From the NCBI GenBank assembly GCA_964016885.1, contig OZ024745.1, positions 10,602,001 to 10,666,000 on the forward strand: a stretch of DNA of 64,000 nt. The letters run 5' to 3'. The notes beneath the pieces were generated by a model. That model did no database searches, was not told the origin of the DNA, and worked only from the letters and a program-made list of their open reading frames with translations. Within the stretch, counting starts at the first letter, position 1. Every line of letters starts with the position of its first letter. A program made the position numbers and the translations under genes. Origin of the DNA: Eledone cirrhosa. Lineage: Eukaryota. Below, piece after piece: positions 15,930 to 61,700 of this stretch.

Positions 15930-16524
15930 GCCTACATAGATATATACATATATAGATATATACATAGATAGATATATACATAGATACATACATAGATATA
16001 TACATACATAGATATATACATAGATACATACATAGATACATACATAGATATATACATACATATATATATATATATATACATATATAGATATATATTGATA
16101 TATACATAGATATATACACACATAGATATATACATAGATATATACATACATAGATATATACATACATAGATATATACATACATACATATATACATACATA
16201 CATACATACATGGTGGCTGCCAACTCGTTTTCGAGTATGGCCACTACCTTATATCCATGTAGGAGAACCCCTACTGATGCGCTGAACAAGTGTGACTTTT
16301 TAGTCCAGCCAGCGACTTGAAAACTCTGGTACAACCACTACACTTGTCACAATTATTGACACATAGTACTGGGCCCATACATAGATATATACATACATAG
16401 ATATATACATAGATATATACATGGATATATACACACATAGATATATACATACGTAGATACATACGTAGATACATACATAGATATATACATACATAGATAT
16501 ATACATAGATATATACATACATAG

Positions 16525-21183: not shown

Positions 21184-21205
21184 TATATATATATATATAT
21201 ATACA

Positions 21206-23618: not shown

Positions 23619-23760
23619 TTGAAGGAGTGAAGAATAACATGGTTAACAGTACAAAAAGGGTTTTATTTACAGTCTAACAATTGTTTCTCTGATTAAGTTG
23701 TTAGACTAAATAAATTCCCCCTTTTTGTACTGTTGACCATGTTATTCTTCACTTTTTCAA
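23619..23760. repeat. Imperfect long inverted repeat (fold-back), next to (TA)n
   Basis: AGTGAAGAATAACATGGTTAACAGTACAAAAAGGG...AGTCTAACAA pairs with TTGTTAGACT...CCCTTTTTGTACTGTTGACCATGTTATTCTTCACT. Confidence 0.85.
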
Positions 23761-24199
23761 TTTTATATATATATATATATAGGAGAGGGGAAACCTGCGG
23801 CTTTGGAAGCATCCAATGATGTTGACCAGTTCTCCTTTTTAGGTAGTGTTTTGATGCTCAGAGAGTGGGATTGGTTGAGTGCAAGGCCTTTCCCTGCTTA
23901 AAAAAACCCTTTAAAGTACAGGCATTGCTTGTTCGGGATATGTTACAGGTTTGTGTGGCTGACGGTAGCCTAAAAGTGCACCAAACTATAATCTGACAAG
24001 CAATTGCAGAGTTTGCAGCCATCATATATATATATATAGAAAGAGTGATATATTATTTGAGAAACAGTATTTTGTACATATATAAAGCACATATTCAGGA
24101 AAAAATACATAGATACTTTAAGATGAAGAACTTTTCCTGATGATTTCTCTTGAATGAAACAGTTCTAGTCCTGTAGAAGCCATTTCTGTATTACATTTG

Positions 24200-38662: not shown

Positions 38663-40006
38663 TAAGATAAATTTAATGTAAATATAACTGAAATTAAACA
38701 ATTCTGGTTTGCAATATGCTATAAGATCTGATCACGGTCAGAAAAGTAAGAGAACCTATCTTCTGATGAGCAGCCAACTAACTATGAAATACGTAAAAAC
38801 ATTCCCTATATTTTTCTGTGGATGAAATGAACAACAATACATTTACATTTGTTCAGGTTTTCCCAGCGAGGCTTATAATTAAAAAAAACAACCCCATCTT
38901 CGCCTTTGTTATACGCTGTATCGTGCATAAATATTTATTATTTAATTAAGCACATTGACGGCGAATGTACATTTAACTGATTTTAGTGGTTTTGTTTAGA
39001 TTTAGAACTATTGCAAAAGTAATTTTAGATTTTTGTTGAATGATTGAACGAATTATAAAGTGACCATTTTTATAGTCATGCTATTCATCTTACAAAGAAT
39101 TATACTTAGGAAGTTAAGGTTTTGCTAGATTATATTTTTAGATTTTTTTAGACATCGCATTCTTTCTTCCCTGCAGCTATTTTGGTTAAACATGGCCGCA
39201 ACTTTTCAGTTTATAAAGAACGAGTCAGAAAGATTTATAGACGTATTGTCTGCTTAGAACCTAATTTATGTCGGTCTAGACTAACACCTATTGAATTTTT
39301 AAGCTGTGACATTGCATGTCTAGTGTATTGTATTGCAGACTTGAGTATTAATTTCTATGATATAATATAGTATAGTGTAATATTGTTATATGTCAAATCA
39401 ATATTTCTATGATATCAAATCAATATTTCTATGGTATAATATAGTATGATATTGTTATGAGTCAAATCAATATTTCTATTTCAAGGCTGCAAATGATTTC
39501 GTCATTTTACTATTTCCACACTCATATGTTGGTTATTTCAGTTATTTCGTAGTTACTGGCCATTTATTCAGTGTTTCAAGGGGATGAGGAACTTGCTGAA
39601 GAGATGGATGAAGGTAGTCTTCTTTAAAAAATAAAGTTGATCAGAAAAAAAGTTGTGAATACTTTGCGAGAGATAAAGCAAAATATAGAAATGTGAAAAA
39701 TGACTTAGACGAACATGTTAAATAATTAACGAAGTTTTCCGAATTGTATTTCATAAAGTAGACAAGGTGAAATTAGAATACCCCGAGGGAAATGTTTTGT
39801 TTCATTTTTTATATAATGTCTCGCCACCTGTTGATGACATAGGAATTTGTCAGGAAATAAGCAGCTTCTTTTGCTAAAATATCGTCTGGGTTAGTCGTTA
39901 CCTGTGTGTTATATAGCCAGACAAAGAACACAGACAAAGAATCACAGAACATAATTATTTAAACAATGGTGTTAAGGCTGTAGTTTAGGAACTGATGCTA
40001 TCCATG

Positions 40007-40040
<34 letters not shown>

Positions 40041-40065
40041 TGTATGTATGTATGTATGTATGTAT

Positions 40066-42387
40066 CCGGGAGAGATGACCCCTTAGCCTTTGTCAAGGCA
40101 GAATTCTAGGAGAAGGAAAACTCTGATATAACACCTGCAAACCTGATAGTATCCAATGATGTTGACGTGTTCTTCTTTTTGGTAAATATCATCTTGGTTA
40201 AGAGAGTGGGACTGGCTTTGTGCAGTGCCTTTGCTCACTATAAAAGCTTCATGGCACAGGCATTGCTTTATATCTGGAGATCTCTCTGCACTTGTCGTCA
40301 CATGATACCATGGGCCCAGCACTATGTGCCAATAATTGTCACAAGTATGGTGTTTGTACCAGAGTTTTCAAGTCGCTGGCTGGACTAAAAAGTCACACTC
40401 GTTCAGCGCATCGGTAGGGATTCTCCTACATGGATATAAAGTAGTGGCCGTACTCGAAAACGAGTTGGCAGCCACCATGTATGTATGTATGTATGTATGT
40501 ATGTATGTATGTATGTATGTATGTATGTATGTATGTATGTATGTATGCAAAGGGCAAAGGAGCTCTTAAGAGTCAATGGCCATCCAAAATCATCGGGAGA
40601 GATGACCCCTTAGCCTTTGTCAAGGCTGAATTCTAGGAGAAGGAAAACTCTGATATAACACCTGCAACCCTGATGGTATCCAATGATGTTGACTTGTTCT
40701 TCTTTTTGGTAAATATCATCTTGGTTAAGAGAGTGGGACTGGCTTTGTGCAGTGCCTTTGCTCACTATAAAAGCTTCACGGCACAGGCATTGCTTTATAT
40801 CTGGAGATCTCTCTGCACTTGTCGTCAGATGGTACCATGGGCCTAGCACTATGTGTCAATAATTGTCACAAGTGTAGTGTTAGTACCAGAGTTTTCAAAT
40901 CGCTGGCTGGACTAAAAAGTCACACTCGTTCAGCGCATCCGTAGGGGTTCTCCTAAATGGATATAAAGTAGTGGCCATACTCGAAAATGAGTTGGCAGCC
41001 ACCATGTATGTATGTATGTATGTATGTATGTATGTATGTATGTATGTATGTATGTATGTATGTATGTATGTATGTATGTATGTATGTATGTATGCATGCA
41101 TGCATGCATGCATGTATGTATGTATGTATGTATGTATGTATGTATGTATGTATGTATGTATGTATGCATGTATGTATGTATGTATGTATGCATCTCATAG
41201 TCGTTGGCGACTAAACTAGCAACCCCAAGAAGGTTTCTTGGTGAGGTGGGTGACTTTGGACATCCTGCAGGACTAAAAGCAAAACCTGTCAAAGGGCAAA
41301 GGAGCTCTTAAGAGTCAATGGCCATCCAAAATCACCGGGAGAGATGACCCCTTAGCCTTTGTCAAGGCAGAATTCTAGGAGAAGGAAAACTCTGATATAA
41401 CACCTGCAAACCTGATGGTATCCAATGATGTTGACTTGTTCTTCTTTTTGGTAAATATCATCTTGGTTAAGAGAGTGGGACTGGCTTTGTGCAATGCCTT
41501 TGCTCACTATAAAAGCTTCACGGCACAGGCATTGCTTTGTATCTGGAGATCTCTCTGCACTTGTCGTCACATGGTACCATGGGCCCAGCACTATGTGTCA
41601 ATAATTGTCACAAGTGTAGTGTTTGTACCAGAGTTTTCAAGTCGCTGGCTGGACTAAAATGTCACACTCGTTCAGCGCATCGGTAGGAGTTCTCCTACAT
41701 GGATATAAAGTAGTGGCCGTACTCGAAAACGAGTTGGCAGCCACCATGTATGCATGTATGTATGTATGTATGTATGTATGTATGTATGTATGTATGTATG
41801 TCATACATACATACATGTCTCATGGTCGGGTCGTTGGCGACTAAACTGGGAACCCCACCAAGGTTTCTTGGTGAGGAAGGTGACTTTGGACATCCAGCAG
41901 GACTAAAAACAAAACCTGTCAAAAGGGCAAAGGAGCTCTTAAGAGTCAATGGCCATCCCAAATCACCGAGAGAGATGACCCCTTAGCCTTTGTCAAGTCA
42001 GAATTCTAGGCGAAGGAAAACTCTGATATAACACCTGCAACCCTGATGGTATCCAATGATGTTCACTTGTTCTTCTTTTTGGTAAATATCATCTTGGTTA
42101 AGAGAGTGGGACTGGCTTTGTGCAGTGCCTTTGCTCACTATAAAAGCTTCACGGCACAGGCATTGATTTATATCTGGAGATCTCTTTGCACTTGTCGTCA
42201 CATGGTGCCATGGGCCCAGCACTATGTGTCAATAATTGTCACAGGTGTAGTTTTTATACCAGAGTTTTCAAGTCGCTGGCTGGACTAAAAATCCACACTC
42301 GTTCAGTGCATCTGTATGGGTTCTCCTACATGGATATAAAGTAGTTGCCGTATTCGAAAACGAGTTGGCAGCCACCATATATGTATG

Positions 42388-42421
<34 letters not shown>

Positions 42422-42457
42422 TGTATGTATGTATGTATGTATGTATGTATGTATGTA

Positions 42458-42488
<31 letters not shown>

Positions 42489-43150
42489 ATGTATGTATGT
42501 ATGTATGTATGTATGTATGTATGTATGTATGCATGTATGTATGTCAGGTTACCAGTTGGTGCTACTGGTAACATGTATCCCAGTACAACCTGTCCCATGG
42601 TCGGGTCGTTGGTGACTAAACTGGCAACGCTACCAAGGTTTCTTGGTGAGGAAGGTGACTTTGGACATCCTGCAGGACTAAAAACAAAACCTGTCAAATG
42701 GCAAAGGAGCTCTTAAGAGTCAATGGCCATCCAATATCACCGGGAGAGATGACCCCTTAGCCTTTGTCAAGGCAGAATTCTAGGAGAAGGAAAACTCTGA
42801 TATAACACCTGCAACCCTAATGGTATCCAATGATGTTGACTTGTTCTTCTTTTTGGTAAATATCATCTTGGTTAAGAGAGTGGGACTGGCTTTGTGCAAT
42901 GCCTTTGCTCACTATAAAAGCTTCACGGCACAGGCATTGCTTTATATCTGGAGATCTCTCTGCACTTGTCGTCACATGGTGCCATGGGCCCAGCACTATG
43001 TGTCAATAATTGTCACAGGTGTAGTGTTTGTACCAGAGTTTTCAAGTCGCTGGCTGGACTAAAAATCCACACTCGTTCAGTGCATCTGTAGGGGTTCTCC
43101 TACATGGATATAAATTAGTGGCCGTACTAAAAAACGAGTTGGCAGCCACC

Positions 43151-43183
<33 letters not shown>

Positions 43184-44257
43184 TGTATGTATGTATGTAT
43201 GTATGTATGTATGTATGTATGTATGTATGTATGTATGTATGTGTGAGATGACCCCTTAGCCTTTGTCAATGCAGAATTCTAGGAGAAGGAAAACTCTGAT
43301 ATAACACCTGCAACCCTGATGGTATCCAATGATGTTGACTTGTTCTTCTTTTTGGTAAATATCATCTTGGTTAAGAGAGTGGGACTGGCTTTGTGCAGTG
43401 CCTTTGCTCACTATAAAAGCTTCACGGCACAGGCATTGATTTATATCTGGAGATCTCTCTGCACTTGTCGTCACATGGTACCATGGGCCCAGCACTGTGT
43501 CAATAATTGTCACAAGTGTAGTGTTTGTACCAGAGTTTTCAAGTCGCTGGCTGGACTGAAAAGTCACATTCGTTCAGCGCATCGGTAGGGGTTTTCCTAC
43601 ATGGATATAAAGTAGTGGCCGTACTCGAAAATGAGTTGGCAGCCGCCATGTGTGTTTTCTCTTTCTCTTAATTTCGAGTATATTTTTTTGACCGGCCACC
43701 TTCCTGGTGGCAAGGTTGTAAAAGAAAAGAAATTGTCATCCCTTGAATCGCAAGAATGTTTTGCAAATTTTGAAGGTGCCAGCTATCGCAGCCATTTGCA
43801 GACTATGAATTAGGGAGCTGCGCTTTTTGTCCGCAAATCCAAGTTCAGTCATACTTTGGTCCAAGCGGGTTGGTATGTAACCCGTAGCCCCAATAATGAT
43901 GGGTATGAAGCTAAAGGTGTATCTTGGATACTGGATTTGTAAACTCCTCATCAATGGTCCGTAGATGTCCTCCTTCTCCTGTATTTTTCTGTCAACGTTT
44001 ACATCAAGTGGGCAGCTGATCTCCACAACAGAACACGTTTTCAATGTGTGGTCCCAAACAACAATATCAGGCCGGTTGTGCTTTAATTTGGTGGCAGTTT
44101 TTATTTTCAGGCTCCACCAGTATTCCTTAGTGCCATCTGTCTCAATATATTCTTCCTCGTTTGTTGTTAATTTTTTGTGTATGTATGTGTGTGTGTATGT
44201 ATGTATGTATGTATGTATGTATGTATGTATGTATGTATGTATGTATGTATGTGTGTG

Positions 44258-44289
<32 letters not shown>

Positions 44290-45708
44290 TGTATGTATGT
44301 ATGTATGTATGTATGTATGTATGTATGTGTGTATGTATGTATGTATGTCAGGTCACCAGTTGGTGCTACTGGTAACATGTATACCAGTACAACCTGTCTC
44401 ATGGTCAGGTCGTTGGCGACTAAACTGGCAACCCCTCCAACGTTTCTTGGTGAGGAGGGTGACTTTGGACATCCTGCAGGACTAAAAACAAAACCTGTCA
44501 AAGGGCAAAGGAGCTCTTAAGAGTCAATGGCCATCCAAAATCACCGGGAGAGATGACCCCTTAGCCTTTGTCAAGGCTGAATTCTAGGAGAAGGAAAACT
44601 CTGATATAACACCTGCAACCCTGATGGTATCCTATGATGTTGACTTGTTCTTCTTTTTGGTAAATATCATCTTGGTTAAGAGAGTGGGACTGGCTTTGTG
44701 CAATGCCTTTGCTCACTATAAAAGCTTCACGGCACAGGCATTGCTTTATATCTGGAGATCTCTCTGCACTTGTCGTCAGATGGTACCATGGGCCTAGCAC
44801 TATGTGTCAATAATTGTCACAAGTGTAGTGTTTGTACCAAAGTTTTCAAATCGCTGGCTGGACTAAAAAGTCACACTCGTTCAGCGCATCCGTAGGGGTT
44901 CTCCTACATGGATATAAAGTAGTGGCCGTACTCGAAAATGAGTTGGCAGCCACCATGTATGTATCTATGTATGTATGTATGTATGTATGTATGTATGTAT
45001 GTATGTATGTATGTATGTATGTATGTATGTATGTATGTATGCATGCATGCATGCATGTATGTATGTATGTATGTATGTATGTATGTATGTATGTATGTAT
45101 GTATGTATGTATGTATGTATGCATGTATGTATGTATGTATGTATGCATCTCATGGTCGTTGGCGACTAAACTAGCAACCCCAACAAGGTTTCTTGGTGAG
45201 GAAGGTGACTTTGGACATCCTGCAGGACTAAAAGCAAAACCTGTCAAAGGGCAAAGGAGCTCTTAAGAGTCAATGGCCATCCAAAATCACCGGGAGAGAT
45301 GACCCCTTAGCCTTTGTCAAGGCAGAATTCTAGGAGAAGGAAAACTCTGATATAACACCTGCAAACCTGATGGTATCCAATGATGTTGACTTGTTCTTCT
45401 TTTTGGTAAATATCATCTTGGTTAAGAGAGTGGGACTGGCTTTGTGCAATGCCTTTGCTCACTATAAAAGCTTCACGGCACAGGCATTGCTTTGTATCTG
45501 GAGATCTCTCTGCACTTGTCGTCACATGGTACCATGGGCCCAGCACTGTGTCAATAATTGTCACAAGTGTAGTGTTTGTACCAGAGTTTTCAAATCGCTG
45601 GCTGGACTAAAAAGTCACACTCGTTCAGCGCATCCGTAGGGGTTCTCCTACATGGATATAAAGTAGTGGCCGTACTCGAAAACGAGTTGGCAGCCACCAT
45701 ATATATAT

Positions 45709-45740
<32 letters not shown>

Positions 45741-45784
45741 TGTATGTATGTATGTATGTATGTATGTATGTATGTATGTATGTA
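40066..45784 (+). mobile_element. Head-to-tail array of 8 copies of a ~606-bp non-autonomous bipartite RTE-like element, each with an (ATGT)n tail
   Basis: Copies at 40066-40476, 40547-41003, 41191-41745, 41816-42376, 42545-43150, 43244-43647, 44349-44954 and 45145-45698. Common 3' end TTGGCAGCCACC, variable 5' ends, RTE-like 5'UTR motif GGAGAAGGAAAACTCTGA, and a terminal C2H2 remnant [22 protein letters not shown]. Confidence 0.82.
43655..44176 (-). mobile_element. R4/Dong-clade non-LTR retrotransposon 3' fragment (restriction-like endonuclease plus 3' UTR)
   Basis: Open frame 44176-43736: EYWWSLKIKTATKLKHNRPDIVVWDHTLKTCSVVEISCPLDVNVDRKIQEKEDIYGPL...FIPIIIGATG, the PD-(D/E)xK RLE signature. 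Confidence 0.85.
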
Positions 45785-46792: not shown

Positions 46793-49700
46793 GTAGAGAC
46801 TGACACAGTTTGAAAGGAGGATAATAGTTGAGTATCTATTGTAGAGAGTGACACAGTTTGAAAGGAAGTTAATAGTTGAGTATCTATTGTAGAGACTGAC
46901 ACAGTTTGAAAGGAGGATAATAGTTGAGTATCTGTTGTAGAGAGTGAGACAGTTTGAAAGGAAGGTAATAGTTGAGTATCTATTGTAGAGAGTGACACAG
47001 TTTGAAACGAAGGTATTAGTTGAGTATCTGTTGTAGAGACTGACACAGTTTGAAAGGAAGTTAATAGTTGAGTATCTGTTGTAGAGACTGACAGTTTGAA
47101 AGGAAGTTAATAGTTGAGTATCTGTTGTAGAGAGTGACACAGTTTGAAAGGAAATTAATAATTGAGTATCTATTGTAGAGAGTGATACAGTTTGAAAGGA
47201 AGGTAATAGTTGAGTATCTGTTGTAGAGAGTGATACAGTTTGAAAGGAAGTTAATAGTTGAGTATCTATTGTAGAGAGTGAGACAGTTTGAAAGGAAGTT
47301 AATAGTTGAGTATCTATTGTAGAGACTGACACAGTTTGAAAGGAAGTTAATAGTTGAGTATCTATTGTAGAGACTGACACAGTTTGAAAGGAAGTTAATA
47401 GTTGAGTATCTATTGTAGAGACTGACACAGTTTGAAAGGAAGTTAATAGTTGAGTATCTGTTGTAGAGAGTGACACAGTTTGAAAGGGGGTTAATAGTTG
47501 AGTATCTATTGTAGAGACTGACACAGTTTGAAAGGAAGTTAATAGTTGAGTATCTATTGTAGAGACTGACACAGTTTGAAAGGAAGTTAATAGTTGAGTA
47601 TCTATTGTAGAGACTGACACAGTTTGAAAGGAAGTTAATAGTTGAGTATCTGTTGTAGAGAGTGACACAGTTTGAAAGGGGGTTAATAGTTGAGTATCTG
47701 TTGTAGAGAGGGACACAGTTTGAAAGGAGGTTAATAGTTGAGTATCTGTTGTAGAGAGTGACACAGTTTGAAAGGGGGTTAATAGTTGAGTATCTGTTGT
47801 AGAGAGTGACACAGTTTGAAAGGGGGTTAATAGTTGAGTATCTATTGTAGAGACTGACACAGTTTGAAAGGAAGTTAATAGTTGAGTATCTATTGTAGAG
47901 ACTGACACAGTTTGAAAGGAAGTTAATAGTTGAGTATCTATTGTAGAGACTGACACAGTTTGAAAGGAAGTTAATAGTTGAGTATCTGTTGTAGAGAGTG
48001 ACACAGTTTGAAAGGGGGTTAATAGTTGAGTATCTGTTGTAGAGAGGGACACAGTTTGAAAGGAGGTTAATAGTTGAGTATCTGTTGTAGAGAGTGACAC
48101 AGTTTGAAAGGGGGTTAATAGTTGAGTATCTGTTGTAGAGAGTGACACAGTTTGAAAGGGGGTTAATAGTTGAGTATCTGTTGTAGAGAGTGACACAGTT
48201 TGAAAGGGGGTTAATAGTTGAGTATCTGTTGTAGAGAGTGACACAGTTTGAAAGGAAGTTAATAGTTGAGTATCTGTTGTAGAGAGTGACACAGTTTGAA
48301 AGGGGGTTAATAGTTGAGTATCTGTTGTAGAGAGGGACACAGTTTGAAAGGAGGTTAATAGTTGAGTATCTGTTGTAGAGACTGACACAGTTTGAAAGGA
48401 AGTTAATAGTTGAGTATCTGTTGTAGAGAGTGATACAGTTTGAAAGGAAGTTAATAGTTGAGTATCTATTGTAGAGACTGACACAGTTTGAAAGGAAGTT
48501 AATAGTTGAGTATCTATTGTAGAGACTGACACAGTTTGAAAGGAAGTTAATAGTTGAGTATCTATTGTAGAGAGTGACACAGTTTGAAAGGAAGTTAATA
48601 GTTGAGTATCTGTTGTAGAGAGTGACACAGTTTGAAAGGAAGTTAATAGTTGAGTATCTGTTGTAGAGAGGGACACAGTTTGAAAGGAGGTTAATAGTTG
48701 AGTATCTGTTGTAGAGACTGACACAGTTTGAAAGGAAGTTAATAGTTGAGTATCTATTGTAGAGACTGACACAGTTTGAAAGGAAGTTAATAGTTGAGTA
48801 TCTGTTGTAGAGAGTGACACAGTTTGAAAGGAAGTTAATAGTTGAGTATCTGTTGTAGAGAGGGACACAGTTTGAAAGGAGGTTAATAGTTGAGTATCTG
48901 TTGTAGAGAGTGACACAGTTTGAAAGGAAGTTAATAGTTGAGTATCTATTGTAGAGACTGACACAGTTTGAAAGGAAGTTAATAGTTGAGTATCTGTTGT
49001 AGAGAGTGACACAGTTTGAAAGGAGGTTAATAGTTGAGTATCTGTTGTAGAGAGTGACACAGTTTGAAAGGAAGTTAATAGTTGAGTATCTATTGTAGAG
49101 ACTGACACAGTTTGAAAGGAAGTTAATAGTTGAGTATCTGTTGTAGAGAGTGACACAGTTTGAAAGGAATTTAATAGTTGAGTATCTGTTGTAGAGAGGG
49201 ACACAGTTTGAAAGGAGGTTAATAGTTGAGTATCTGTTGTAGAGAGTGACACAGTTTGAAAGGAAGTTAATAGTTGAGTATCTATTGTAGAGACTGACAC
49301 AGTTTGAAAGGAAGTTAATAGTTGAGTATCTGTTGTAGAGAGTGACACAGTTTGAAAGGAATTTAATAGTTGAGTATCTGTTGTAGAGAGGGACACAGTT
49401 TGAAAGGAGGTTAATAGTTGAGTATCTGTTGTAGAGAGTGACACAGTTTGAAAGGAAGTTAATAGTTGAGTATCTGTTGTAGAGAGTGACACAGTTTGAA
49501 AGGAAGTTAATAGTTGAGTATCTGTTGTAGAGAGGGACACAGTTTGAAAGGAGGATAATAGTTGAGTATCTATTGTAGAGAGTGACACAGTTTGAAAGGA
49601 AGTTAATAGTTGAGTATCTGTTGTAGAGACTGACACAGTTTGAAAGGAGGATAATAGTTGAGTATCTGTTGTAGAGAGTGAGACAGTTTGAAAGGAAGGT

Positions 49701-52700
49701 AATAGTTGAGTATCTATTGTAGAGAGTGACACAGTTTGAAACGAAGGTATTAGTTGAGTATCTGTTGTAGAGACTGACACAGTTTGAAAGGAGGATAATA
49801 GTTGAGTATCTATTGTAGAGAGTGACACAGTTTGAAAGGAAGTTAATAGTTGAGTATCTGTTGTAGAGAGTGATACAGTTTGAAAGGAAGTTAATAGTTG
49901 AGTATCTGTTGTAGAGACTGACACAGTTTGAAAGGAGGATAATAGTTGAGTATCTATTGTAGAGAGTGACAAAGTTTGAAAGGAGGATAATAGTTGAGTA
50001 TCTATTGTAGAGAGTGACAAAGTTTGAAAGGAGGATAATAGTTGAGTATCTAGTGTAGAGAGTGACACAGTTTGAAAGGAAGTTAATAGTTGAGTATCTG
50101 TTGTAGAGAGTGATACAGTTTGAAAGGAAGTTAATAGTTGAGTATCTGTTGTAGAGACTGACACAGTTTGAAAGGAGGATAATAGTTGAGTATCTATTGT
50201 AGAGAGTGACACAGTTTGAAAGGAAGTTAATAGTTGAGTATCTGTTGTAGAGAGTGATACAGTTTGAAAGGAAGTTAATAGTTGAGTATCTGTTGTAGAG
50301 ACTGACACAGTTTGAAAGGAGGATAATAGTTGAGTATCTATTGTAGAGAGTGATAGAGTTTGAAAGGAGGATAATAGTTGAGTGTCTAGTGTAGAGAGTG
50401 ATACAATTTGAAAGGAAGTTAATAGTTGAGTATCTGTTGTAGAGAGTGACACAGTTTGAAAGGAGGATAATAGTTGAGTATCTATTGTAGAGAGTGACAG
50501 AGTTTGAAAGGAGGATAATTGTTGAGTATCTATTGTAGAGAGTGACACAGATTGAAAGGAAGTTAATAGTTGAGTATCTGTTGTAGAGAGTGATACAGTT
50601 TGAAAGGAGGATAATAGTTGAGTATCTGTTGTAGAGAGTGACAGAGTTTGAAAGGAGGATAATTGTTGAGTATCTATTGTAGAGAGTGACACAGATTGAA
50701 AGGAAGTTAATAGTTGAGTATCTGTTGTAGAGAGTGATACAGTTTGAAAGGAGGATAATAGTTGAGTATCTATTGTAGAGAGTGACAGAGTTTGAAAGGA
50801 GGATAATTGTTGAGTATCTATTGTAGAGAGTGACACAGTTTGAAAGGAAGTTAATAGTTGAGTATCTGTTGTAGAGACTGACACAGTTTGAAAGGAGGAT
50901 AATAGTTGAGTATCTATTGTAGAGAGTGACAGAGTTTGAAAGGAGGATAATTGTTGAGTATCTATTGTAGAGAGTGACACAGATTGAAAGGAAGTTAATA
51001 GTTGAGTATCTGTTGTAGAGAGTGATACAGTTTGAAAGGAGGATAATAGTTGAGTATCTAGTGTAGAGAGTGATACAATTTGAAAGGAAGTTAATAGTTG
51101 AGTATCTGTTGTAGAGACTGACACAGTTTGAAAGGAAGTTAATAGTTGAGTATCTATTGTAGAGAGTGATACAGTTTGAAAGGAAGTTAATAGTTGAGTA
51201 TCTGTTGTAGAGACTGACACAGTTTGAAAGGAGGATAATAGTTGAGTATCTATTGTAGAGACTGACACAGTTTGAAAGGAAGTTAATAGTTGAGTATCTA
51301 TTGTAGAGACTGACACAGTTTGAAAGGAAGTTAATAGTTGAGTATCTATTGTAGAGACTGACACAGTTTGAAAGGAAGTTAATAGTTGAGTATCTGTTGT
51401 AGAGAGTGACACAGTTTGAAAGGGGGTTAATAGTTGAGTATCTGTTGTAGAGAGGGACACAGTTTGAAAGGAGGTTAATAGTTGAGTATCTGTTGTAGAG
51501 AGTGACACAGTTTGAAAGGGGGTTAATAGTTGAGTATCTGTTGTAGAGAGTGACACAGTTTGAAAGGGGGTTAATAGTTGAGTATCTATTGTAGAGACTG
51601 ACACAGTTTGAAAGGAAGTTAATAGTTGAGTATCTATTGTAGAGACTGACACAGTTTGAAAGGAAGTTAATAGTTGAGTATCTATTGTAGAGACTGACAC
51701 AGTTTGAAAGGAAGTTAATAGTTGAGTATCTGTTGTAGAGAGTGACACAGTTTGAAAGGGGGTTAATAGTTGAGTATCTGTTGTAGAGAGGGACACAGTT
51801 TGAAAGGAGGTTAATAGTTGAGTATCTGTTGTAGAGAGTGACACAGTTTGAAAGGGGGTTAATAGTTGAGTATCTGTTGTAGAGAGTGACACAGTTTGAA
51901 AGGGGGTTAATAGTTGAGTATCTGTTGTAGAGAGTGACACAGTTTGAAAGGGGGTTAATAGTTGAGTATCTGTTGTAGAGAGTGACACAGTTTGAAAGGA
52001 AGTTAATAGTTGAGTATCTGTTGTAGAGAGTGACACAGTTTGAAAGGGGGTTAATAGTTGAGTATCTGTTGTAGAGAGGGACACAGTTTGAAAGGAGGTT
52101 AATAGTTGAGTATCTGTTGTAGAGACTGACACAGTTTGAAAGGAAGTTAATAGTTGAGTATCTGTTGTAGAGAGTGATACAGTTTGAAAGGAAGTTAATA
52201 GTTGAGTATCTATTGTAGAGACTGACACAGTTTGAAAGGAAGTTAATAGTTGAGTATCTATTGTAGAGACTGACACAGTTTGAAAGGAAGTTAATAGTTG
52301 AGTATCTATTGTAGAGAGTGACACAGTTTGAAAGGAAGTTAATAGTTGAGTATCTGTTGTAGAGAGTGACACAGTTTGAAAGGAAGTTAATAGTTGAGTA
52401 TCTGTTGTAGAGAGGGACACAGTTTGAAAGGAGGTTAATAGTTGAGTATCTGTTGTAGAGACTGACACAGTTTGAAAGGAAGTTAATAGTTGAGTATCTA
52501 TTGTAGAGACTGACACAGTTTGAAAGGAAGTTAATAGTTGAGTATCTGTTGTAGAGAGTGACACAGTTTGAAAGGAAGTTAATAGTTGAGTATCTGTTGT
52601 AGAGAGGGACACAGTTTGAAAGGAGGTTAATAGTTGAGTATCTGTTGTAGAGAGTGACACAGTTTGAAAGGAAGTTAATAGTTGAGTATCTATTGTAGAG

Positions 52701-55700
52701 ACTGACACAGTTTGAAAGGAAGTTAATAGTTGAGTATCTGTTGTAGAGAGTGACACAGTTTGAAAGGAGGTTAATAGTTGAGTATCTGTTGTAGAGAGTG
52801 ACACAGTTTGAAAGGAAGTTAATAGTTGAGTATCTATTGTAGAGACTGACACAGTTTGAAAGGAAGTTAATAGTTGAGTATCTGTTGTAGAGAGTGACAC
52901 AGTTTGAAAGGAATTTAATAGTTGAGTATCTGTTGTAGAGAGGGACACAGTTTGAAAGGAGGTTAATAGTTGAGTATCTGTTGTAGAGAGTGACACAGTT
53001 TGAAAGGAAGTTAATAGTTGAGTATCTATTGTAGAGACTGACACAGTTTGAAAGGAAGTTAATAGTTGAGTATCTGTTGTAGAGAGTGACACAGTTTGAA
53101 AGGAATTTAATAGTTGAGTATCTGTTGTAGAGAGGGACACAGTTTGAAAGGAGGTTAATAGTTGAGTATCTGTTGTAGAGAGTGACACAGTTTGAAAGGA
53201 AGTTAATAGTTGAGTATCTGTTGTAGAGAGTGACACAGTTTGAAAGGAAGTTAATAGTTGAGTATCTGTTGTAGAGAGGGACACAGTTTGAAAGGAGGAT
53301 AATAGTTGAGTATCTATTGTAGAGAGTGACACAGTTTGAAAGGAAGTTAATAGTTGAGTATCTGTTGTAGAGACTGACACAGTTTGAAAGGAGGATAATA
53401 GTTGAGTATCTGTTGTAGAGAGTGAGACAGTTTGAAAGGAAGGTAATAGTTGAGTATCTATTGTAGAGAGTGACACAGTTTGAAACGAAGGTATTAGTTG
53501 AGTATCTGTTGTAGAGACTGACACAGTTTGAAAGGAGGATAATAGTTGAGTATCTATTGTAGAGAGTGACACAGTTTGAAAGGAAGTTAATAGTTGAGTA
53601 TCTGTTGTAGAGAGTGATACAGTTTGAAAGGAAGTTAATAGTTGAGTATCTGTTGTAGAGACTGACACAGTTTGAAAGGAGGATAATAGTTGAGTATCTA
53701 TTGTAGAGAGTGACAAAGTTTGAAAGGAGGATAATAGTTGAGTATCTATTGTAGAGAGTGACAAAGTTTGAAAGGAGGATAATAGTTGAGTATCTAGTGT
53801 AGAGAGTGACACAGTTTGAAAGGAAGTTAATAGTTGAGTATCTGTTGTAGAGAGTGATACAGTTTGAAAGGAAGTTAATAGTTGAGTATCTGTTGTAGAG
53901 ACTGACACAGTTTGAAAGGAGGATAATAGTTGAGTATCTATTGTAGAGAGTGACACAGTTTGAAAGGAAGTTAATAGTTGAGTATCTGTTGTAGAGAGTG
54001 ATACAGTTTGAAAGGAAGTTAATAGTTGAGTATCTGTTGTAGAGACTGACACAGTTTGAAAGGAGGATAATAGTTGAGTATCTATTGTAGAGAGTGATAG
54101 AGTTTGAAAGGAGGATAATAGTTGAGTGTCTAGTGTAGAGAGTGATACAATTTGAAAGGAAGTTAATAGTTGAGTATCTGTTGTAGAGAGTGACACAGTT
54201 TGAAAGGAGGATAATAGTTGAGTATCTATTGTAGAGAGTGACAGAGTTTGAAAGGAGGATAATTGTTGAGTATCTATTGTAGAGAGTGACACAGATTGAA
54301 AGGAAGTTAATAGTTGAGTATCTGTTGTAGAGAGTGATACAGTTTGAAAGGAGGATAATAGTTGAGTATCTGTTGTAGAGAGTGACAGAGTTTGAAAGGA
54401 GGATAATTGTTGAGTATCTATTGTAGAGAGTGACACAGATTGAAAGGAAGTTAATAGTTGAGTATCTGTTGTAGAGAGTGATACAGTTTGAAAGGAGGAT
54501 AATAGTTGAGTATCTATTGTAGAGAGTGACAGAGTTTGAAAGGAGGATAATTGTTGAGTATCTATTGTAGAGAGTGACACAGTTTGAAAGGAAGTTAATA
54601 GTTGAGTATCTGTTGTAGAGACTGACACAGTTTGAAAGGAGGATAATAGTTGAGTATCTATTGTAGAGAGTGACAGAGTTTGAAAGGAGGATAATTGTTG
54701 AGTATCTATTGTAGAGAGTGACACAGATTGAAAGGAAGTTAATAGTTGAGTATCTGTTGTAGAGAGTGATACAGTTTGAAAGGAGGATAATAGTTGAGTA
54801 TCTAGTGTAGAGAGTGATACAATTTGAAAGGAAGTTAATAGTTGAGTATCTGTTGTAGAGACTGACACAGTTTGAAAGGAAGTTAATAGTTGAGTATCTA
54901 TCGTAGAGAGTGATACAGTTTGAAAGGAAGTTAATAGTTCAGTATCTATTGTAGAGAGTGATACAGTTTGAAAGGAGGATAATAGTTGAGTATCTGTTGT
55001 AGAGACTGACACAGTTTGAAAGGAGGATAATAGTTGAGTATCTACAGTAGAGAGTGACACAGTTTGAAAGGAGGATAATAGTTGAGTATCTATTGTAGAG
55101 AGTGATACAATTTGAAAGGAAGTTAATAGTTGAGTATCTGTTGTAGAGAGTGACACAGTTTTAAAGGAAGTTAATAGTTGAGTATCTGTTGTAGAGAGTG
55201 ACACAGTTTGAAAGGAAGTTAATAGTTGAGTATCTGTTGTAGAGACTGACACAGTTTGAAAGGAAGTTAATAGTTGAGTATCTGTTGTAGAGACTGACAG
55301 TTTGAAAGGAAGTTAATAGTTGAGTATCTGTTGTAGAGAGTGACACAGTTTGAAAGGAAGTTAATAGTTGAGTATCTGTTGTAGAGAGTGACACAGTTTG
55401 AAAGGAAGTTAATAGTTGAGTATCTGTTGTAGAGACTGACAGTTTGAAAGGAAGTTAATAGTTGAGTATCTGTTGTAGAGAGTGACACAGTTTGAAAGGA
55501 AATTAATAATTGAGTATCTATTGTAGAGAGTGATACAGTTTGAAAGGAAGGTAATAGTTGAGTATCTGTTGTAGAGAGTGATACAGTTTGAAAGGAAGTT
55601 AATAGTTGAGTATCTATTGTAGAGAGTGAGACAGTTTGAAAGGAAGTTAATAGTTGAGTATCTATTGTAGAGACTGACACAGTTTGAAAGGAAGTTAATA

Positions 55701-58700
55701 GTTGAGTATCTATTGTAGAGACTGACACAGTTTGAAAGGAAGTTAATAGTTGAGTATCTATTGTAGAGACTGACACAGTTTGAAAGGAAGTTAATAGTTG
55801 AGTATCTGTTGTAGAGAGTGACACAGTTTGAAAGGAAGTTAATAGTTGAGTATCTGTTGTAGAGAGTGACACAGTTTGAAAGGGGGTTAATAGTTGAGTA
55901 TCTGTTGTAGAGAGGGACACAGTTTGAAAGGAGGTTAATAGTTGAGTATCTGTTGTAGAGACTGACACAGTTTGAAAGGAAGTTAATAGTTGAGTATCTG
56001 TTGTAGAGAGTGATACAGTTTGAAAGGAAGTTAATAGTTGAGTATCTATTGTAGAGACTGACACAGTTTGAAAGGAAGTTAATAGTTGAGTATCTATTGT
56101 AGAGACTGACACAGTTTGAAAGGAAGTTAATAGTTGAGTATCTATTGTAGAGAGTGACACAGTTTGAAAGGAAGTTAATAGTTGAGTATCTGTTGTAGAG
56201 AGTGACACAGTTTGAAAGGAAGTTAATAGTTGAGTATCTGTTGTAGAGAGGGACACAGTTTGAAAGGAGGTTAATAGTTGAGTATCTGTTGTAGAGACTG
56301 ACACAGTTTGAAAGGAAGTTAATAGTTGAGTATCTATTGTAGAGACTGACACAGTTTGAAAGGAAGTTAATAGTTGAGTATCTGTTGTAGAGAGTGACAC
56401 AGTTTGAAAGGAAGTTAATAGTTGAGTATCTGTTGTAGAGAGGGACACAGTTTGAAAGGAGGTTAATAGTTGAGTATCTGTTGTAGAGAGTGACACAGTT
56501 TGAAAGGAAGTTAATAGTTGAGTATCTATTGTAGAGACTGACACAGTTTGAAAGGAAGTTAATAGTTGAGTATCTGTTGTAGAGAGTGACACAGTTTGAA
56601 AGGAGGTTAATAGTTGAGTATCTGTTGTAGAGAGTGACACAGTTTGAAAGGAAGTTAATAGTTGAGTATCTATTGTAGAGACTGACACAGTTTGAAAGGA
56701 AGTTAATAGTTGAGTATCTGTTGTAGAGAGTGACACAGTTTGAAAGGAATTTAATAGTTGAGTATCTGTTGTAGAGAGGGACACAGTTTGAAAGGAGGTT
56801 AATAGTTGAGTATCTGTTGTAGAGAGTGACACAGTTTGAAAGGAAGTTAATAGTTGAGTATCTATTGTAGAGACTGACACAGTTTGAAAGGAAGTTAATA
56901 GTTGAGTATCTGTTGTAGAGAGTGACACAGTTTGAAAGGAATTTAATAGTTGAGTATCTGTTGTAGAGAGGGACACAGTTTGAAAGGAGGTTAATAGTTG
57001 AGTATCTGTTGTAGAGAGTGACACAGTTTGAAAGGAAGTTAATAGTTGAGTATCTGTTGTAGAGAGTGACACAGTTTGAAAGGAAGTTAATAGTTGAGTA
57101 TCTGTTGTAGAGAGGGACACAGTTTGAAAGGAGGATAATAGTTGAGTATCTATTGTAGAGAGTGACACAGTTTGAAAGGAAGTTAATAGTTGAGTATCTG
57201 TTGTAGAGACTGACACAGTTTGAAAGGAGGATAATAGTTGAGTATCTGTTGTAGAGAGTGAGACAGTTTGAAAGGAAGGTAATAGTTGAGTATCTATTGT
57301 AGAGAGTGACACAGTTTGAAACGAAGGTATTAGTTGAGTATCTGTTGTAGAGACTGACACAGTTTGAAAGGAGGATAATAGTTGAGTATCTATTGTAGAG
57401 AGTGACACAGTTTGAAAGGAAGTTAATAGTTGAGTATCTGTTGTAGAGAGTGATACAGTTTGAAAGGAAGTTAATAGTTGAGTATCTGTTGTAGAGACTG
57501 ACACAGTTTGAAAGGAGGATAATAGTTGAGTATCTATTGTAGAGAGTGACAAAGTTTGAAAGGAGGATAATAGTTGAGTATCTATTGTAGAGAGTGACAA
57601 AGTTTGAAAGGAGGATAATAGTTGAGTATCTAGTGTAGAGAGTGACACAGTTTGAAAGGAAGTTAATAGTTGAGTATCTGTTGTAGAGAGTGATACAGTT
57701 TGAAAGGAAGTTAATAGTTGAGTATCTGTTGTAGAGACTGACACAGTTTGAAAGGAGGATAATAGTTGAGTATCTATTGTAGAGAGTGACACAGTTTGAA
57801 AGGAAGTTAATAGTTGAGTATCTGTTGTAGAGAGTGATACAGTTTGAAAGGAAGTTAATAGTTGAGTATCTGTTGTAGAGACTGACACAGTTTGAAAGGA
57901 GGATAATAGTTGAGTATCTATTGTAGAGAGTGATACAGTTTGAAAGGAGGATAATAGTTGAGTGTCTAGTGTAGAGAGTGATACAATTTGAAAGGAAGTT
58001 AATAGTTGAGTATCTGTTGTAGAGAGTGACACAGTTTGAAAGGAGGATAATAGTTGAGTATCTATTGTAGAGAGTGACAGAGTTTGAAAGGAGGATAATT
58101 GTTGAGTATCTATTGTAGAGAGTGACACAGATTGAAAGGAAGTTAATAGTTGAGTATCTGTTGTAGAGAGTGATACAGTTTGAAAGGAGGATAATAGTTG
58201 AGTATCTGTTGTAGAGAGTGACAGAGTTTGAAAGGAGGATAATTGTTGAGTATCTATTGTAGAGAGTGACACAGATTGAAAGGAAGTTAATAGTTGAGTA
58301 TCTGTTGTAGAGAGTGATACAGTTTGAAAGGAGGATAATAGTTGAGTATCTATTGTAGAGAGTGACAGAGTTTGAAAGGAGGATAATTGTTGAGTATCTA
58401 TTGTAGAGAGTGACACAGTTTGAAAGGAAGTTAATAGTTGAGTATCTGTTGTAGAGACTGACACAGTTTGAAAGGAGGATAATAGTTGAGTATCTATTGT
58501 AGAGAGTGACAGAGTTTGAAAGGAGGATAATTGTTGAGTATCTATTGTAGAGAGTGACACAGATTGAAAGGAAGTTAATAGTTGAGTATCTGTTGTAGAG
58601 AGTGATACAGTTTGAAAGGAGGATAATAGTTGAGTATCTAGTGTAGAGAGTGATACAATTTGAAAGGAAGTTAATAGTTGAGTATCTGTTGTAGAGACTG

Positions 58701-61700
58701 ACACAGTTTGAAAGGAAGTTAATAGTTGAGTATCTATCGTAGAGAGTGATACAGTTTGAAAGGAAGTTAATAGTTCAGTATCTATTGTAGAGAGTGATAC
58801 AGTTTGAAAGGAGGATAATAGTTGAGTATCTGTTGTAGAGACTGACACAGTTTGAAAGGAGGATAATAGTTGAGTATCTACAGTAGAGAGTGACACAGTT
58901 TGAAAGGAGGATAATAGTTGAGTATCTATTGTAGAGAGTGATACAATTTGAAAGGAAGTTAATAGTTGAGTATCTGTTGTAGAGAGTGACACAGTTTTAA
59001 AGGAAGTTAATAGTTGAGTATCTGTTGTAGAGAGTGACACAGTTTGAAAGGAAGTTAATAGTTGAGTATCTGTTGTAGAGACTGACACAGTTTGAAAGGA
59101 AGTTAATAGTTGAGTATCTGTTGTAGAGACTGACACAGTTTGAAAGGAGGATAATAGTTGAGTATCTATTGTAGAGAGTGACAGAGTTTGAAAGGAGGAT
59201 AATAGTTGAGTATCTATTGTAGAGAGTGACACAGATTGAAAGGAAGTTAAGAGTTGAGTATCTGTTGTAGAGAGTGACACAATTTGAAATGAAGTTAATA
59301 GTTGAGTATCTGCTGTAGAGAGTGACACAGTTTGAAAGGAAGTTAATAGTTGAGTATCTATCGTAGAGAGTGATACAGTTTGAAAGGAAGTTAATAGTTG
59401 AGTATCTATTGTAGAGAGTGATACATTTTGAAAGTAGGATAATAGTTGAGTATCTATTGTAGAGAGTGACACAGTTTGAAAGGAAGTTAATAGTTGAGTA
59501 TCTGTTGTAGAGAGTGACACAGTTTTAAAGGAAGTTAATAGTTGAGTATCTGTTGTAGAGAGTGATACAGTTTGAAAGGAAGGTAATAGTTGAGTATATG
59601 TTGTAGAGAGTGATACAGTTTGAAAGGAAGGTAATAGTTGAGTATCTGTTGTAGAGAGTGACACAGTTTGAAAGGAAGGTAATAGTTGAGTATCTATTGT
59701 AGAGAGTGACACAGTTTGAAAGGAAGTTAATAGTTGAGTATCTGTTGTAGAGAGTGACACAGTTTGAAAGGAAGGTAATAGTTGAGTATCTATTGTAGAG
59801 AGTGACACAGTTTGAAAGGGAGGTAATAGTTGAGTATCTGTTGTAGAGAGTGATACAGTTTGAAAGGAAGGTAATAGTTGAGTATTTGTTGTAGAGAGTG
59901 ACACAGTTTGAAAGGAAGTTAATTGTTGAGTATCTATTGTAGAGAGTGACACAGTTTGAAAGAAGGGTAATAGTTGAGTATCTGTTGTAGAGAGTGACAC
60001 AGTTTGAAAGGAAGGTAATAGTTGAGTATCTATTGTAGAGAGTGACACAGATTGAAAGGAAGTTAATAGTTGAGTATCTGTTGTAGAGAGTGACACAGTT
60101 GGAAAGGAAGGTAATAGTTGAGTATCTATTGTAGAGAGTGACACAGTTTGAAAGGGAGGTAATAGTTGAGTATCTGTTGTAGAGAGTGATACAGTTTGAA
60201 ACGAAGGTAATAGTTGAGTATTTGTTGTAGAGAGTGATACAGTTTGAAAGGAAGTTAATTGTTGAGTATCTATTGTAGAGAGTGACACAGTTTGAAAGAA
60301 GGGTAATAGTTGAGTATCTGTTGTAGAGAGTGACACAGTTTGAAAGGAAGGTAATAGTTGAGTATCTATTGTAGAGAGTGACACAGATTGAAAGGAAGTT
60401 AATAGTTGAGTATCTGTTGTAGAGAGTGACACAATTTGCAAGGAAGTTAATAGTTGAGTATCTGTTGTAGAGAGTGACACAGTTTGAAAGGAAGTTAATA
60501 GTTGAGTATCTATTGTAGAGAGTGATACAGTTTGAAAGGAGGATAATAGTTGAGTATCTATAGTAGAGAGTGACAGAGTTTGAAAGGAGGATAATAGTTG
60601 AGTATCTATTGTAGAGAGTGATACAATTTGAAAGGAGGATAATAGTTGAGTATCTGTTGTAGAGACTGACACAGTTTGAAAGGAGGATAATAGTTGAGTA
60701 TCTATAGTAGAGAGTGACAGAGTTTGAAAGGAGGATAATAGTTGAGTATCTATTGTAGAGAGTGATACAATTTGAAAGGAAGTTAATAGTTGAGTATCTG
60801 TTGTAGAGAGTGACACAGTTTTAAAGGAAGTTAATAGTTGAGTATCTGTTGTAGAGAGTGACACAGTTTGAAAGGAAGTTAATAGTTGAGTATCTGTTGT
60901 AGAGACTGACACAGTTTGAAAGGAAGTTAATAGTTGAGTATCTGTTGTAGAGACTGACACAGTTTGAAAGGAGGATAATAGTTGAGTATCTATTGTAGAG
61001 AGTGACACAGATTGAAAGGAATTTAATAGTTGAGTATCTGTTGTAGAGAGTGACACAATTTGAAAGGAAGTTAATAGTTGAGTATCTGTTGTAGAGAGTG
61101 ACACAGTTTGAAAGGAAGTTAATAGTTGATTATCTATCGTAGAGAGTGATACAGTTTGAAAGGAAGTTAATAGTTGAGTATCTATTGTAGAGAGTGATAC
61201 ATTTTGAAAGTAGGATAAAAGGTTGAGTATCTATTGTAGAGAGTGACACAGTTTGAAAGGAAGTTAATAGTTGAGTATCTGTTGTAGAGAGTGACACAGT
61301 TTTAAAGGAAGTTAATAGTTGAGTATCTGTTGTAGAGAGTGATACAGTTTGAAAGGAAGGTAATAGTTGAGTATCTGTTGTAGAGAGTGATACAGTTTGA
61401 AACGAAGGTAATAGTTGAGTATCTGTTGTAGAGAGTGACACAGTTTGAAAGGAAGGTAATAGTTGAGTATCTATTGTAGAGAGTGACACAGTTTGAAAGG
61501 AAGGTAGTAGTTGAGTATCTATTGTAGAGAGTGACACAGTTTGAAAGGAAGTTAATAGTTGAGTATCTGTTGTAGAGAGTGACACAGTTTGAAAGGAAGG
61601 TAATAGTTGAGTATCTATTGTAGAGAGTGACACAGTTTGAAAGGGAGGTAATAGTTGAGTATCTGTTGTAGAGAGTGATACAGTTTGAAAGGAAGGTAAT

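Follow-up and report, generated by a model that had tools for sequence, protein, structure and literature searches.

HeT-A and TART build head-to-tail arrays of variably 5'-truncated copies at telomeres, being added to chromosome ends. Queue formation is also known for Alu and L1: the accessible part of the CLIQUE report describes catenated L1-endonuclease-induced queues of Alu, L1 and SVA (PMC3215922), and Alu inserts into itself on the sense strand (PMC2836564). Elements that join a LINE 5' UTR to a LINE 3' end, with neither reverse transcriptase (RT) nor endonuclease and no small-RNA head, include RTESINE1/2, WALLSI3, MAR4_MD and Bov-A (PMC5786205, accessible part). The signature of the RTE clade is Tn-TA, with a tail/TSD first-base correlation (PMC6007223, PMC13295347, PMC2887409). 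Waldo (ACAY), Mino, Kibi, Koshi and Dong insert in simple repeats, ACAY being the complement strand of ATGT (PMC3812793), and SINE-derived satellites of squamates are tandem retroposon copies with signs of unequal recombination (PMC10702118).

We analyzed a window of 64,000 nucleotides from Eledone cirrhosa (contig OZ024745.1, positions 10,602,001 to 10,666,000), in which retroposon copies are piled at 40066..45784. The likeness to HeT-A/TART drawn in an earlier note on this DNA holds for the head-to-tail, variably truncated arrangement; the array is interstitial (10.64 Mb on a 134.7-Mb contig, away from the chromosome end), sits in an internal tract and has no indicated host role, and the analogy is loose. 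As in CLIQUEs and Alu self-insertion, copies are head-to-tail and orientation-biased, families mix at a shared target, and an insertion leaves or adds target, RNA-tail priming having been proposed there; the target is A-rich in those systems, whereas here it is (ATGT)n/(AT)n and the machinery is RTE-like (PMC3215922, PMC2836564). Unlike in the CLIQUEs, the families here include an antiparallel RLE-type LINE that has an enzyme of its own, and the queue was enlarged at the DNA level (PMC3215922). The unit has the LINE-plus-LINE construction of RTESINE1/2, WALLSI3, MAR4_MD and Bov-A; it differs in keeping a C2H2 remnant and in its strong microsatellite preference, none being described for them in the accessible part of PMC5786205. 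The squamate satellites have uniform units shorter than a SINE, in up to hundreds of copies, whereas eight unequal, mostly unhomogenized units are found here (PMC10702118). What is unusual is that an RTE-like lineage shows a microsatellite preference that is both strong and strand-polar; strand-specific (ATGT)n targeting is not described for the RTE clade in the literature that we searched.

Layout and make-up of the array

The array holds eight plus-strand copies (c1 to c8) of a 610-bp RT-less element. Their ends (40478, 41005, 41747, 42378, 43152, 43649, 44956 and 45700) fall at one element position, c6 having one substitution there, and the 5' starts are of six kinds: element positions 1 (c5, c7), ~49, ~53 (c3, c8), 153, 198 and ~204. 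The features are as follows.

40003..40065, plus strand: (ATGT)n tract of 63 bp ahead of c1, with no family copy before it
40066..40478, plus: c1, 5'-truncated, start ~198 (element alignment)
40548..41005, plus: c2, start ~153, with five rare alleles in common with c7
41006..41189, plus: c2-c3 spacer, 184 bp, its (ATGC) interruptions matching the c7-c8 spacer
41190..41747, plus: c3, start ~53, 5-bp deletion, its junction common genome-wide to c8 only
41815..42378, plus: c4, start ~49, with six rare alleles in common with c5, of which five lie within element positions 439-545
42543..43152, plus: c5, full length, 610 bp (element alignment)
43243..43649, plus: c6, start ~204, the tract behind it broken off after ~6 bases
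43656..44176, minus: 3' end of a 5'-truncated, unrelated LINE that carries a restriction-like endonuclease motif, antiparallel, within an ATGT tract in the c6/c7 gap
44347..44956, plus: c7, full length, the reference unit
44347..44744, plus: 5' part (unit positions 1-398) in c7; an autonomous RTE-like LINE and a short derivative of that LINE have homologous 5' UTRs
44818..44895, plus: C2H2 zinc-finger remnant and stop codon in c7; the homologous part of the autonomous LINE is its last finger
44916..44956, plus: 3' terminal stem-loop region in c7, with 82% identity to the autonomous LINE over the final 34 nt
44957..45144, plus: c7-c8 spacer, 188 bp, with the interruption pattern of the c2-c3 spacer
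45145..45700, plus: c8, with the 5' junction of c3 and mosaic alleles (c3, then c6, then c7/c2)
45701..45784, plus: AT/(ATGT)n tract ending the array
16210..16378, minus: solo 3' fragment, 170 bp, element positions ~440-610, in a long ATAC/ATAG repeat field

The earlier note was thus correct on the eight same-orientation copies with a single 3' end, on at least five different 5' starts, on an (ATGT)n tract before the array and on a solo truncated copy in ATAC repeats, whose ATGT polarity relative to the element is that found elsewhere. It erred in having the copies separated by (ATGT)n alone, as the 520-bp antisense LINE fragment lies between c6 and c7, and the c3-c4 spacer closes with a short tract of opposite polarity. 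Six-frame translation and a comparison with an RTE-type ORF revealed no RT similarity within the array, and the 200 bp upstream of it matched neither the element library nor the other sampled loci.

Homology indicates that the unit is a bipartite non-autonomous element, a LINE 5' UTR plus a LINE 3' end, in line with the earlier description of an RTE-like 5' UTR joined to a C2H2 finger and 3' UTR; RT and endonuclease coding regions are absent from its six-frame translation. Positions 192-398 align at 68-73% just 5' of the ORF in six of eight long-ORF LINE copies. The short derivative of the LINE, with which the unit has its 5' start in common, matches positions 1-192 at 76-85%; in the eight loci these positions were never joined to a long-ORF copy. 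At the other end, the last zinc finger is 76-79% identical between the unit and the autonomous LINE (the remnant matches Pfam zf-C2H2_6 with E 2e-5 and 24.9 bits, the cut-off being 25), and both fold the terminal stem-loop. Rfam returned no tRNA, 5S or 7SL family for the head (E up to 5) and no match for a 5' ribozyme. An alignment fold of nine 5' ends, one row of which was mis-cut, showed two-sided change in 1 of 27 pairs, and the contigs of four RNA runs added nothing on element starts or ends.

The autonomous LINE encodes APE, RT and three C2H2 fingers in a single ORF of ~1180 aa, and it is 68-84% alike to the unit in the 5' UTR. We call it RTE-like from similarity scores: it gave 296 bits to a DUF6451-bearing element versus 105 to a CR1-like one, and in its nearest Atlas clusters 63% and 20% of the members have DUF6451. 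Its identity with RTE-2_OV was rejected, the four published primers matching 12-17 of 18-20 positions. The search for an autonomous RTE partner, proposed in the earlier note, succeeded in finding this relative; a direct parent with near-identical ends was absent from our searches. The protein search with the finger remnant was empty, and no copy among the 100 sampled ran on at its 5' side into an RT. Three candidates for the parent were rejected: RVT_1 matches (a CR1-like family with no similarity to the element), DUF6451 matches (families without fingers), and two matches to a guessed upstream-finger junction pattern, whose letters look like mutated copies.

Retroposition into ATGT tracts across the genome

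The 3-Gb genome contains 23,780 exact matches to the 3' end, compared to none for the reversed control, which excludes chance; by this count the family has at least 23,780 copies. Our sample comprised the first 100 copies met along one contig, C1, all within 22 Mb of its start. The sample was chosen by the 3' end and 3'-end fixity in it is by design; BLAST matches in flanking loci agree. Full length was retained in 42 copies, and 58 were 5'-truncated at scattered points. Non-trivial target duplications of 10-41 bp were seen in five copies, most being unreadable inside microsatellites. One copy (L009) lacks a tail and is flanked by a target duplication of ~97 bp; at another (L101), the ~41-bp duplication takes in the head of its downstream neighbor, so that the upstream copy is likely the more recent insertion. 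Two copies abut an inverted 5' piece, and truncation junctions share at least two bases with the tract in 12 of 38 cases (null 9%). The scattered truncations and target duplications support target-primed reverse transcription as the origin of the copies, as the earlier note had read them.

The 5' flank was a purine-pyrimidine microsatellite in 73 of the 100 copies (51 ATGT, 22 AT). Background 30-mers of this kind amounted to 412/9204, 217/3420, 888/6290 and 247/3013 (4.5-14%), giving a 5- to 16-fold enrichment. Sites in the RTE clade, by comparison, are called non-sequence-specific, and Bov-B rarely lies beside tail-like targets; the 3' terminus overlapping the target by a few bases, TA/AT cleavage and microsatellite-linked 3' ends are common to both (PMC6007223, PMC13295347, PMC2887409). 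Insertion is not near-exclusive to one microsatellite, as two tract types are used and a microsatellite is missing from the 5' flank in 23 of the 100 copies; Waldo, Mino, Kibi, Koshi and Dong belong to other clades, and the preference here is strong, not exclusive (PMC3812793). Orientation followed the ATGT-sense strand in 68 of the 73 copies, with one opposite and four ties, and the polarity holds for single copies. The unit thereby matches the fixed orientation to the repeat strand of the Waldo/Kibi/Koshi/Dong type. Neighbors closer than 1.5 kb were on the same strand in 13 of 13 cases (0.67 expected), and where pile members had microsatellite flanks, these were ATGT-type in all 20. A perfect ATGT run immediately precedes 2,004 full-length copies. 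Among 30 sampled pure ATGT runs, 22 had no library element upstream, 5 came after the family and 11 before it (all sense). These counts show that the family prefers ATGT/AT tracts throughout the genome and in a fixed strand polarity, and the random flanks that would have told against the earlier note were not what we found.

The same tracts are common to the unit and two other LINE types. For the autonomous LINE, 9 of 17 5' junctions were within ATGT tracts, 9 of 9 in the sense orientation, compared to 0 of 28 3' flanks for the CR1 control. The endonuclease LINE stood antiparallel against such tracts in 13 of 14 readable matches, at preselected loci. Its 520-bp fragment between c6 and c7 has an open frame with a PD..E..K endonuclease-like motif; the best Pfam match (E 0.048, below cut-off) and the PDB matches (E 0.26 or worse) were taken as chance. 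From the motif, we presume this LINE to be Dong/R4-like.

Host tract, element tail and local duplication

The array is probably a queue of this high-copy, RT-less bipartite RTE-like retroposon, formed by about five insertions in one host (ATGT)n tract and then by duplication or conversion at the DNA level. The autonomous LINE of the same genome would provide endonuclease and RT in trans, and pairing of the short terminal AU(GU) of the RNA to the (ACAT)n strand after nicking would fix the orientation. Insertion would split and partly duplicate the tract, and with target left on both sides queues could grow in either direction; the direct repeats may then recombine.

The earlier note had instead taken the element's own tail as the target. 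That a long carried (ATGT)n tail is the main target, all eight copies being independent insertions in earlier tails, now appears unlikely. Piles are indeed same-strand and ATGT-specific, those elsewhere appear independent, and GTA continues past the terminus in 48 of 100 copies. The check on tandem copies placed 16 of 100 behind their own family (at most 16 of the 51 ATGT-flanked ones), with five behind a second family counted apart; 8% (scaled window count) to 17% (5/30) of ATGT tracts lie behind the family, and there may be a two- to threefold preference for own-family tracts. A further copy was carried by 3 of 5 tracts behind a copy versus 8 of 25 other tracts, in small numbers. Against this, tract type on the 3' side agrees with that on the 5' side (Spearman 0.66, n=57; 48/57 concordant, Fisher 2e-6), and pure ATGT windows number 295 on the 5' side versus 190 on the 3' side of copies. 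Further, 56 of 100 copies lie in tracts with neither the family nor its partner ahead of them, the 3' tract is shorter than 12 bp in 20 of 100, tail-less insertions exist, two other LINE types use the same tracts, and three pairs in the array are duplicates or conversion products. On these counts the tract is for the most part target DNA of the host rather than a fixed tail. Slippage of the RT or a subsequent expansion may have made part of each tract; no pre-insertion allele was seen. The idea that each insertion makes the next target survives in that ATGT-specific, same-strand piles of independent insertions exist, and fails in that the tract is mostly host DNA. We infer a target that is self-renewing, because each insertion leaves tract on both sides, and not self-specific.

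The kinship of the eight copies was mixed. The copies c2/c7, c3/c8 and c4/c5 are closely related pairs: c2/c7 and c4/c5 are strongly supported sisters in the tree (c3/c8 83/87), the 3-Gb genome holds the 31-mer of the c3/c8 junction at two places, both in the array, and the c2-c3 and c7-c8 spacers have matching interruption patterns. Rare alleles shared within pairs number 5 (c2/c7), 5 and 6 (c4/c5), whereas three or more are shared by 0.5% of 3300 random pairs. The pairs are likely local duplicates or conversion products, with about five founders in the array; they could include stitched haplotypes of the assembly. In piles elsewhere, none of 22 within-pile pairs shared three or more rare alleles, which supports their building from independent insertions. 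The copy tree suggested in the earlier note therefore gave a divided answer: its eight independent insertions are reduced by the three local pairs, yet the copies do not form one clade in the best tree (five label changes).

It is very unlikely that one or two founders were tandemly duplicated as an incipient satellite, the 5' ends arising from later deletions. The rare-allele mosaic extends over seven of the eight copies, and the AU test did not reject a single clade (p 0.1); however, no bootstrap tree unites all eight, and most pair differences (range 1.4-6.3%) are 3-6%, as in random family pairs. The units (407-610 bp) are neither uniform nor homogenized, the starts ~49, ~153 and ~198-204 recur as truncation points in unrelated copies, and an independent LINE insertion lies within the array. 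Hardly credible is the absence of targeting, with copies surviving in neutral microsatellite DNA, inverted neighbors lost and tracts expanding later: a microsatellite-rich genome, the 23 copies without such flanks and the known loss of inverted Alu pairs (accessible part of PMC3215922) would suit it, but it is largely refuted by the 68:1 polarity even in single copies, and the flank enrichment, the 2,004 full-length copies behind perfect ATGT runs and the CR1 control also oppose it.

Implications for RTE-like elements and the genome

Beyond the queue itself, we offer tentatively, as a possibility, that strand-specific (ATGT)n targeting arose in an RTE-like lineage whose members bear three C-terminal zinc fingers and that, with its bipartite passengers and the antiparallel RLE-type LINE, this lineage makes ATGT tracts self-renewing landing pads for several families, the array being a queue that begins amplification and homogenization by DNA recombination toward a satellite. 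The data point to no host function. The family is a measurable case of tens of thousands of insertions channelled into microsatellites by tail-target pairing or endonuclease preference. Eleven of the 30 sampled pure ATGT runs lead straight into the unit, and repetitive flanks are to be expected at many ATGT microsatellite markers of this genome. Microsatellite targeting is likely a safe-haven strategy in a clade usually termed non-specific.

Composition and history of the array

The window array is a genuine retroposon queue: copies of a bipartite RTE-like element stand in an ATGT hot spot that is strand-polar and shared, and DNA-level copying has enlarged the queue in part. Its features, together with a solo relative, are as follows.

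40066-45700, plus strand: eight copies of the element (c1 to c8)
43656-44176, minus strand: 520-bp fragment of an endonuclease LINE after c6, with an open frame bearing an endonuclease-like PD..E..K motif
16210-16378, minus strand: solo 3' fragment of the element, of the same family as the array

The eight same-orientation copies described in the earlier note all end at a common 3' terminal element position, and its count of at least five distinct 5' starts was upheld: c5 and c7 are full length (610 bp, from position 1), and the six truncated copies start at ~49, ~53 (c3 and c8), ~153, ~198 and ~204. As had been proposed, the unit carries a C2H2 finger remnant, and neither six-frame translation nor comparison with an RTE-type ORF revealed an RT in it; the solo truncated copy was likewise recovered as the minus-strand 3' fragment. 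Between the copies lie (ATGT)n tracts 67-188 bp long, and the description of copies separated by these alone holds for most of them but fails after c6, where the LINE fragment intervenes. This fragment had no significant match in Pfam or PDB; its motif makes it a possible Dong/R4-like element.

Rare alleles are held in common by c2/c7 (5), c3/c8 (5), c4/c5 (6) and c7/c8 (3); at least three are shared by 0 of 22 within-pile pairs on contig C1 and by 0.5% of 3300 random pairs. The 31-mer of the c3/c8 junction has two genomic occurrences, each in this array, interruptions are common to the c2-c3 and c7-c8 spacers, and c8 is a mosaic. The alternative that all eight copies form one clade is partly borne out at this locus, in the kinship of c2/c7, c3/c8 and c4/c5, but the copies occupy five places in a tree of 83 rows (the eight from the window plus 75 of the 100 from C1, those that span positions 206-575); a single clade was 24 log units worse and was not rejected (p-AU 0.1, with the bootstrap not fully settled). 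The window truncation points are seen again in unrelated copies, and truncation junctions overlap with the tract more often than chance would give, in 12 of 38 cases (the null expectation is 9%, and none of 2000 draws exceeded 26%). The duplicated copies could stem from haplotype stitching in the assembly; about five founders with unequal crossover or conversion is the reading that fits best.

Other repeats in the window include RT-like fragments resembling an RTE-type ORF at 20192-21187 (minus strand) and 11369-11890 (plus strand), the latter stopping at the edge of a 45-bp tandem array that begins at 11901. An abundant repeat at 23600-24030 (211 matches in the loci examined) is 71% alike to the 5' UTR of the element over 120 bp. 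Regions 1-10668 and 46793-64000 are taken up by long satellite arrays, with units of 32 bp and 48 bp and a strong strand skew; several shorter minisatellites lie in between.

The family and its partner LINE

The exact 29-base 3' end of the element has 23,780 matches in the 3.0-Gb genome (reversed control, 0). Our copy sample was the first 100 listed places of this end, all fetched, from the first 22 Mb of contig C1. The element has the anatomy of target-primed reverse transcription, as seen in full-length copies with the same start (42/100), truncation at scattered points (58/100), readable non-trivial target duplications of 10-41 bp (5/100) and abutting inverted 5' pieces (2/100). The top-hit copy L009, full length and tail-less, lies between direct repeats of ~97 bp, a length well beyond the 7-15 bp that is reported for target duplications of RTE elements. 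Copies depart from the majority base at a median of 1.7% of sites (82 C1 copies with at least 300 sites), and five copies within the sample (L034, L154, L157, L165 and L108) form a near-identical subfamily with 0-6 differences and an extra ~28 bp inserted behind element position 437, which marks recent activity. The element's 5' end at 44347-44445 (plus strand), precise in 42 of the 100 copies, has a possible fold of nested hairpins, one of which shows a two-sided change from one family to another; an Rfam search of it matched no family.

An abundant autonomous LINE at the same loci has a single ~1180-aa ORF that encodes an APE endonuclease, an RT and three C2H2 fingers. The match with the element is 68-73% between its 5' UTR and element positions 192-398 (in six of eight long-ORF copies), 76-79% in the finger and 82% over the final 34 bases; element positions 1-192 have their counterpart in a short derivative of this LINE with an internal deletion. 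Placement in the RTE clade is favoured, not proven, by its higher score with a DUF6451-bearing element (296 bits) than with a CR1-like one (105 bits), and by the DUF6451 of its nearest Atlas clusters. It is a sister of the element's true parent, which was not found by protein search, among RVT_1 and DUF6451 match loci, or by an upstream-finger pattern search of the genome. The partner would mobilise the element, since terminus and target are shared. At loci L204-L211 (genome G000, contigs C1, C2, C3, C5 and C7), this LINE has open frames of 1195-1243 aa stop to stop with three C2H2 fingers, each of its UTRs contains microsatellites, and the short element adjoins it in four of the eight. Further internally deleted derivatives (loci L025, L027, L023, L028, L034 and L213) break near the same 5' UTR point (~element position 398) and carry differing 3' parts; thus, bipartite forms arose more than once.

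Target preference and the origin of the tracts

Copies elsewhere do not sit in random flanks. Alternating purine-pyrimidine microsatellite sequence flanks 73 of the 100 C1 copies on the 5' side and 74 on the 3' side, against 4.5-14% of background 30-mers (four sets), and a microsatellite 3' flank was seen in 0 of 28 CR1 controls. Polarity relative to the tract was ATGT-sense in 68 cases, opposite in 1 and tied in 4, and 2,004 full-length copies have a perfect ATGT run directly upstream. Neighbour gaps below 1.5 kb on C1 numbered 13 of 99 (0.67 expected), all same-strand, and the flank was of ATGT type in 20/20 pile members with microsatellite flanks vs 31/53 singles. It is because of this enrichment, the strand polarity and the same-strand ATGT-type piles that the random-flank alternative fails.

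The model of insertion into the element's own (ATGT)n tail mostly did not survive. The tract type is the same before and behind the copy in 48 of 57 cases, the 3' tract is shorter than 12 bp in 20 of 100 C1 copies, and perfect ATGT windows number 295 on the 5' side vs 190 on the 3' side. Upstream of the 100 copies lie the own family (16), a partner LINE end (5), other tracts (56) or no tract (23). Among the first 30 pure ATGT runs listed, the upstream sequence was family in 5, partner in 2, the endonuclease LINE in 1 and none of these in 22; 11 led into the family, all in sense, with a search pattern that may favour 5' junctions. Partner 5' junctions lie within ATGT tracts in 9 of 17 cases, all in sense, and several others resemble internal deletions. 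The share of copies behind their own family is 16% (no more than 16 of the 51 with ATGT flanks), as against 8-17% of tracts, figures that would accommodate a modest self-preference. Part of the tract length may come from the element itself. Queue growth can also go upstream, because the duplication at locus L101, itself further rearranged, takes in the head of the downstream copy.

Of 14 readable matches to the endonuclease LINE, 13 adjoin ATGT tracts in antiparallel orientation (loci preselected). This RLE-type family has its 3' end at ATGT tracts, antiparallel to the RTE-like elements, at window 43656-44176 (minus strand) and loci L108, L164, L193, L205, L144, L091, L195, L019, L110, L166, L159 and L162. 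A second, related LINE family lies likewise at L092, L095, L104 and L110; both are possibly (ACAT)n-targeting Dong/R4-like families.

Relation to known systems

The array works like the CLIQUEs, orientation-biased multi-family queues, of PMC3215922. It differs from a HeT-A-type array, the likeness first suggested, and is not a finished satellite; SINE-derived satellites appear in PMC10702118. Bipartite RTE derivatives are the subject of PMC5786205, PMC2836564 accounts for the self-insertion of sense-strand Alu by pairing of the tail, and PMC6007223 reports tail-target overlap in RTE elements. RTE sites are described as not sequence-specific in PMC2887409, and targets resembling its tail rarely flank Bov-B according to PMC13295347. 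Microsatellite targeters, Waldo on ACAY among them, are listed in PMC3812793, and octopus RTE and Dong-R4 families are covered in PMC9115989 and PMC13282606. Among the open-access papers searched, none dealt with an RTE family that targets ATGT. The sole uncommon feature is how strongly an RTE-like lineage here prefers microsatellites.
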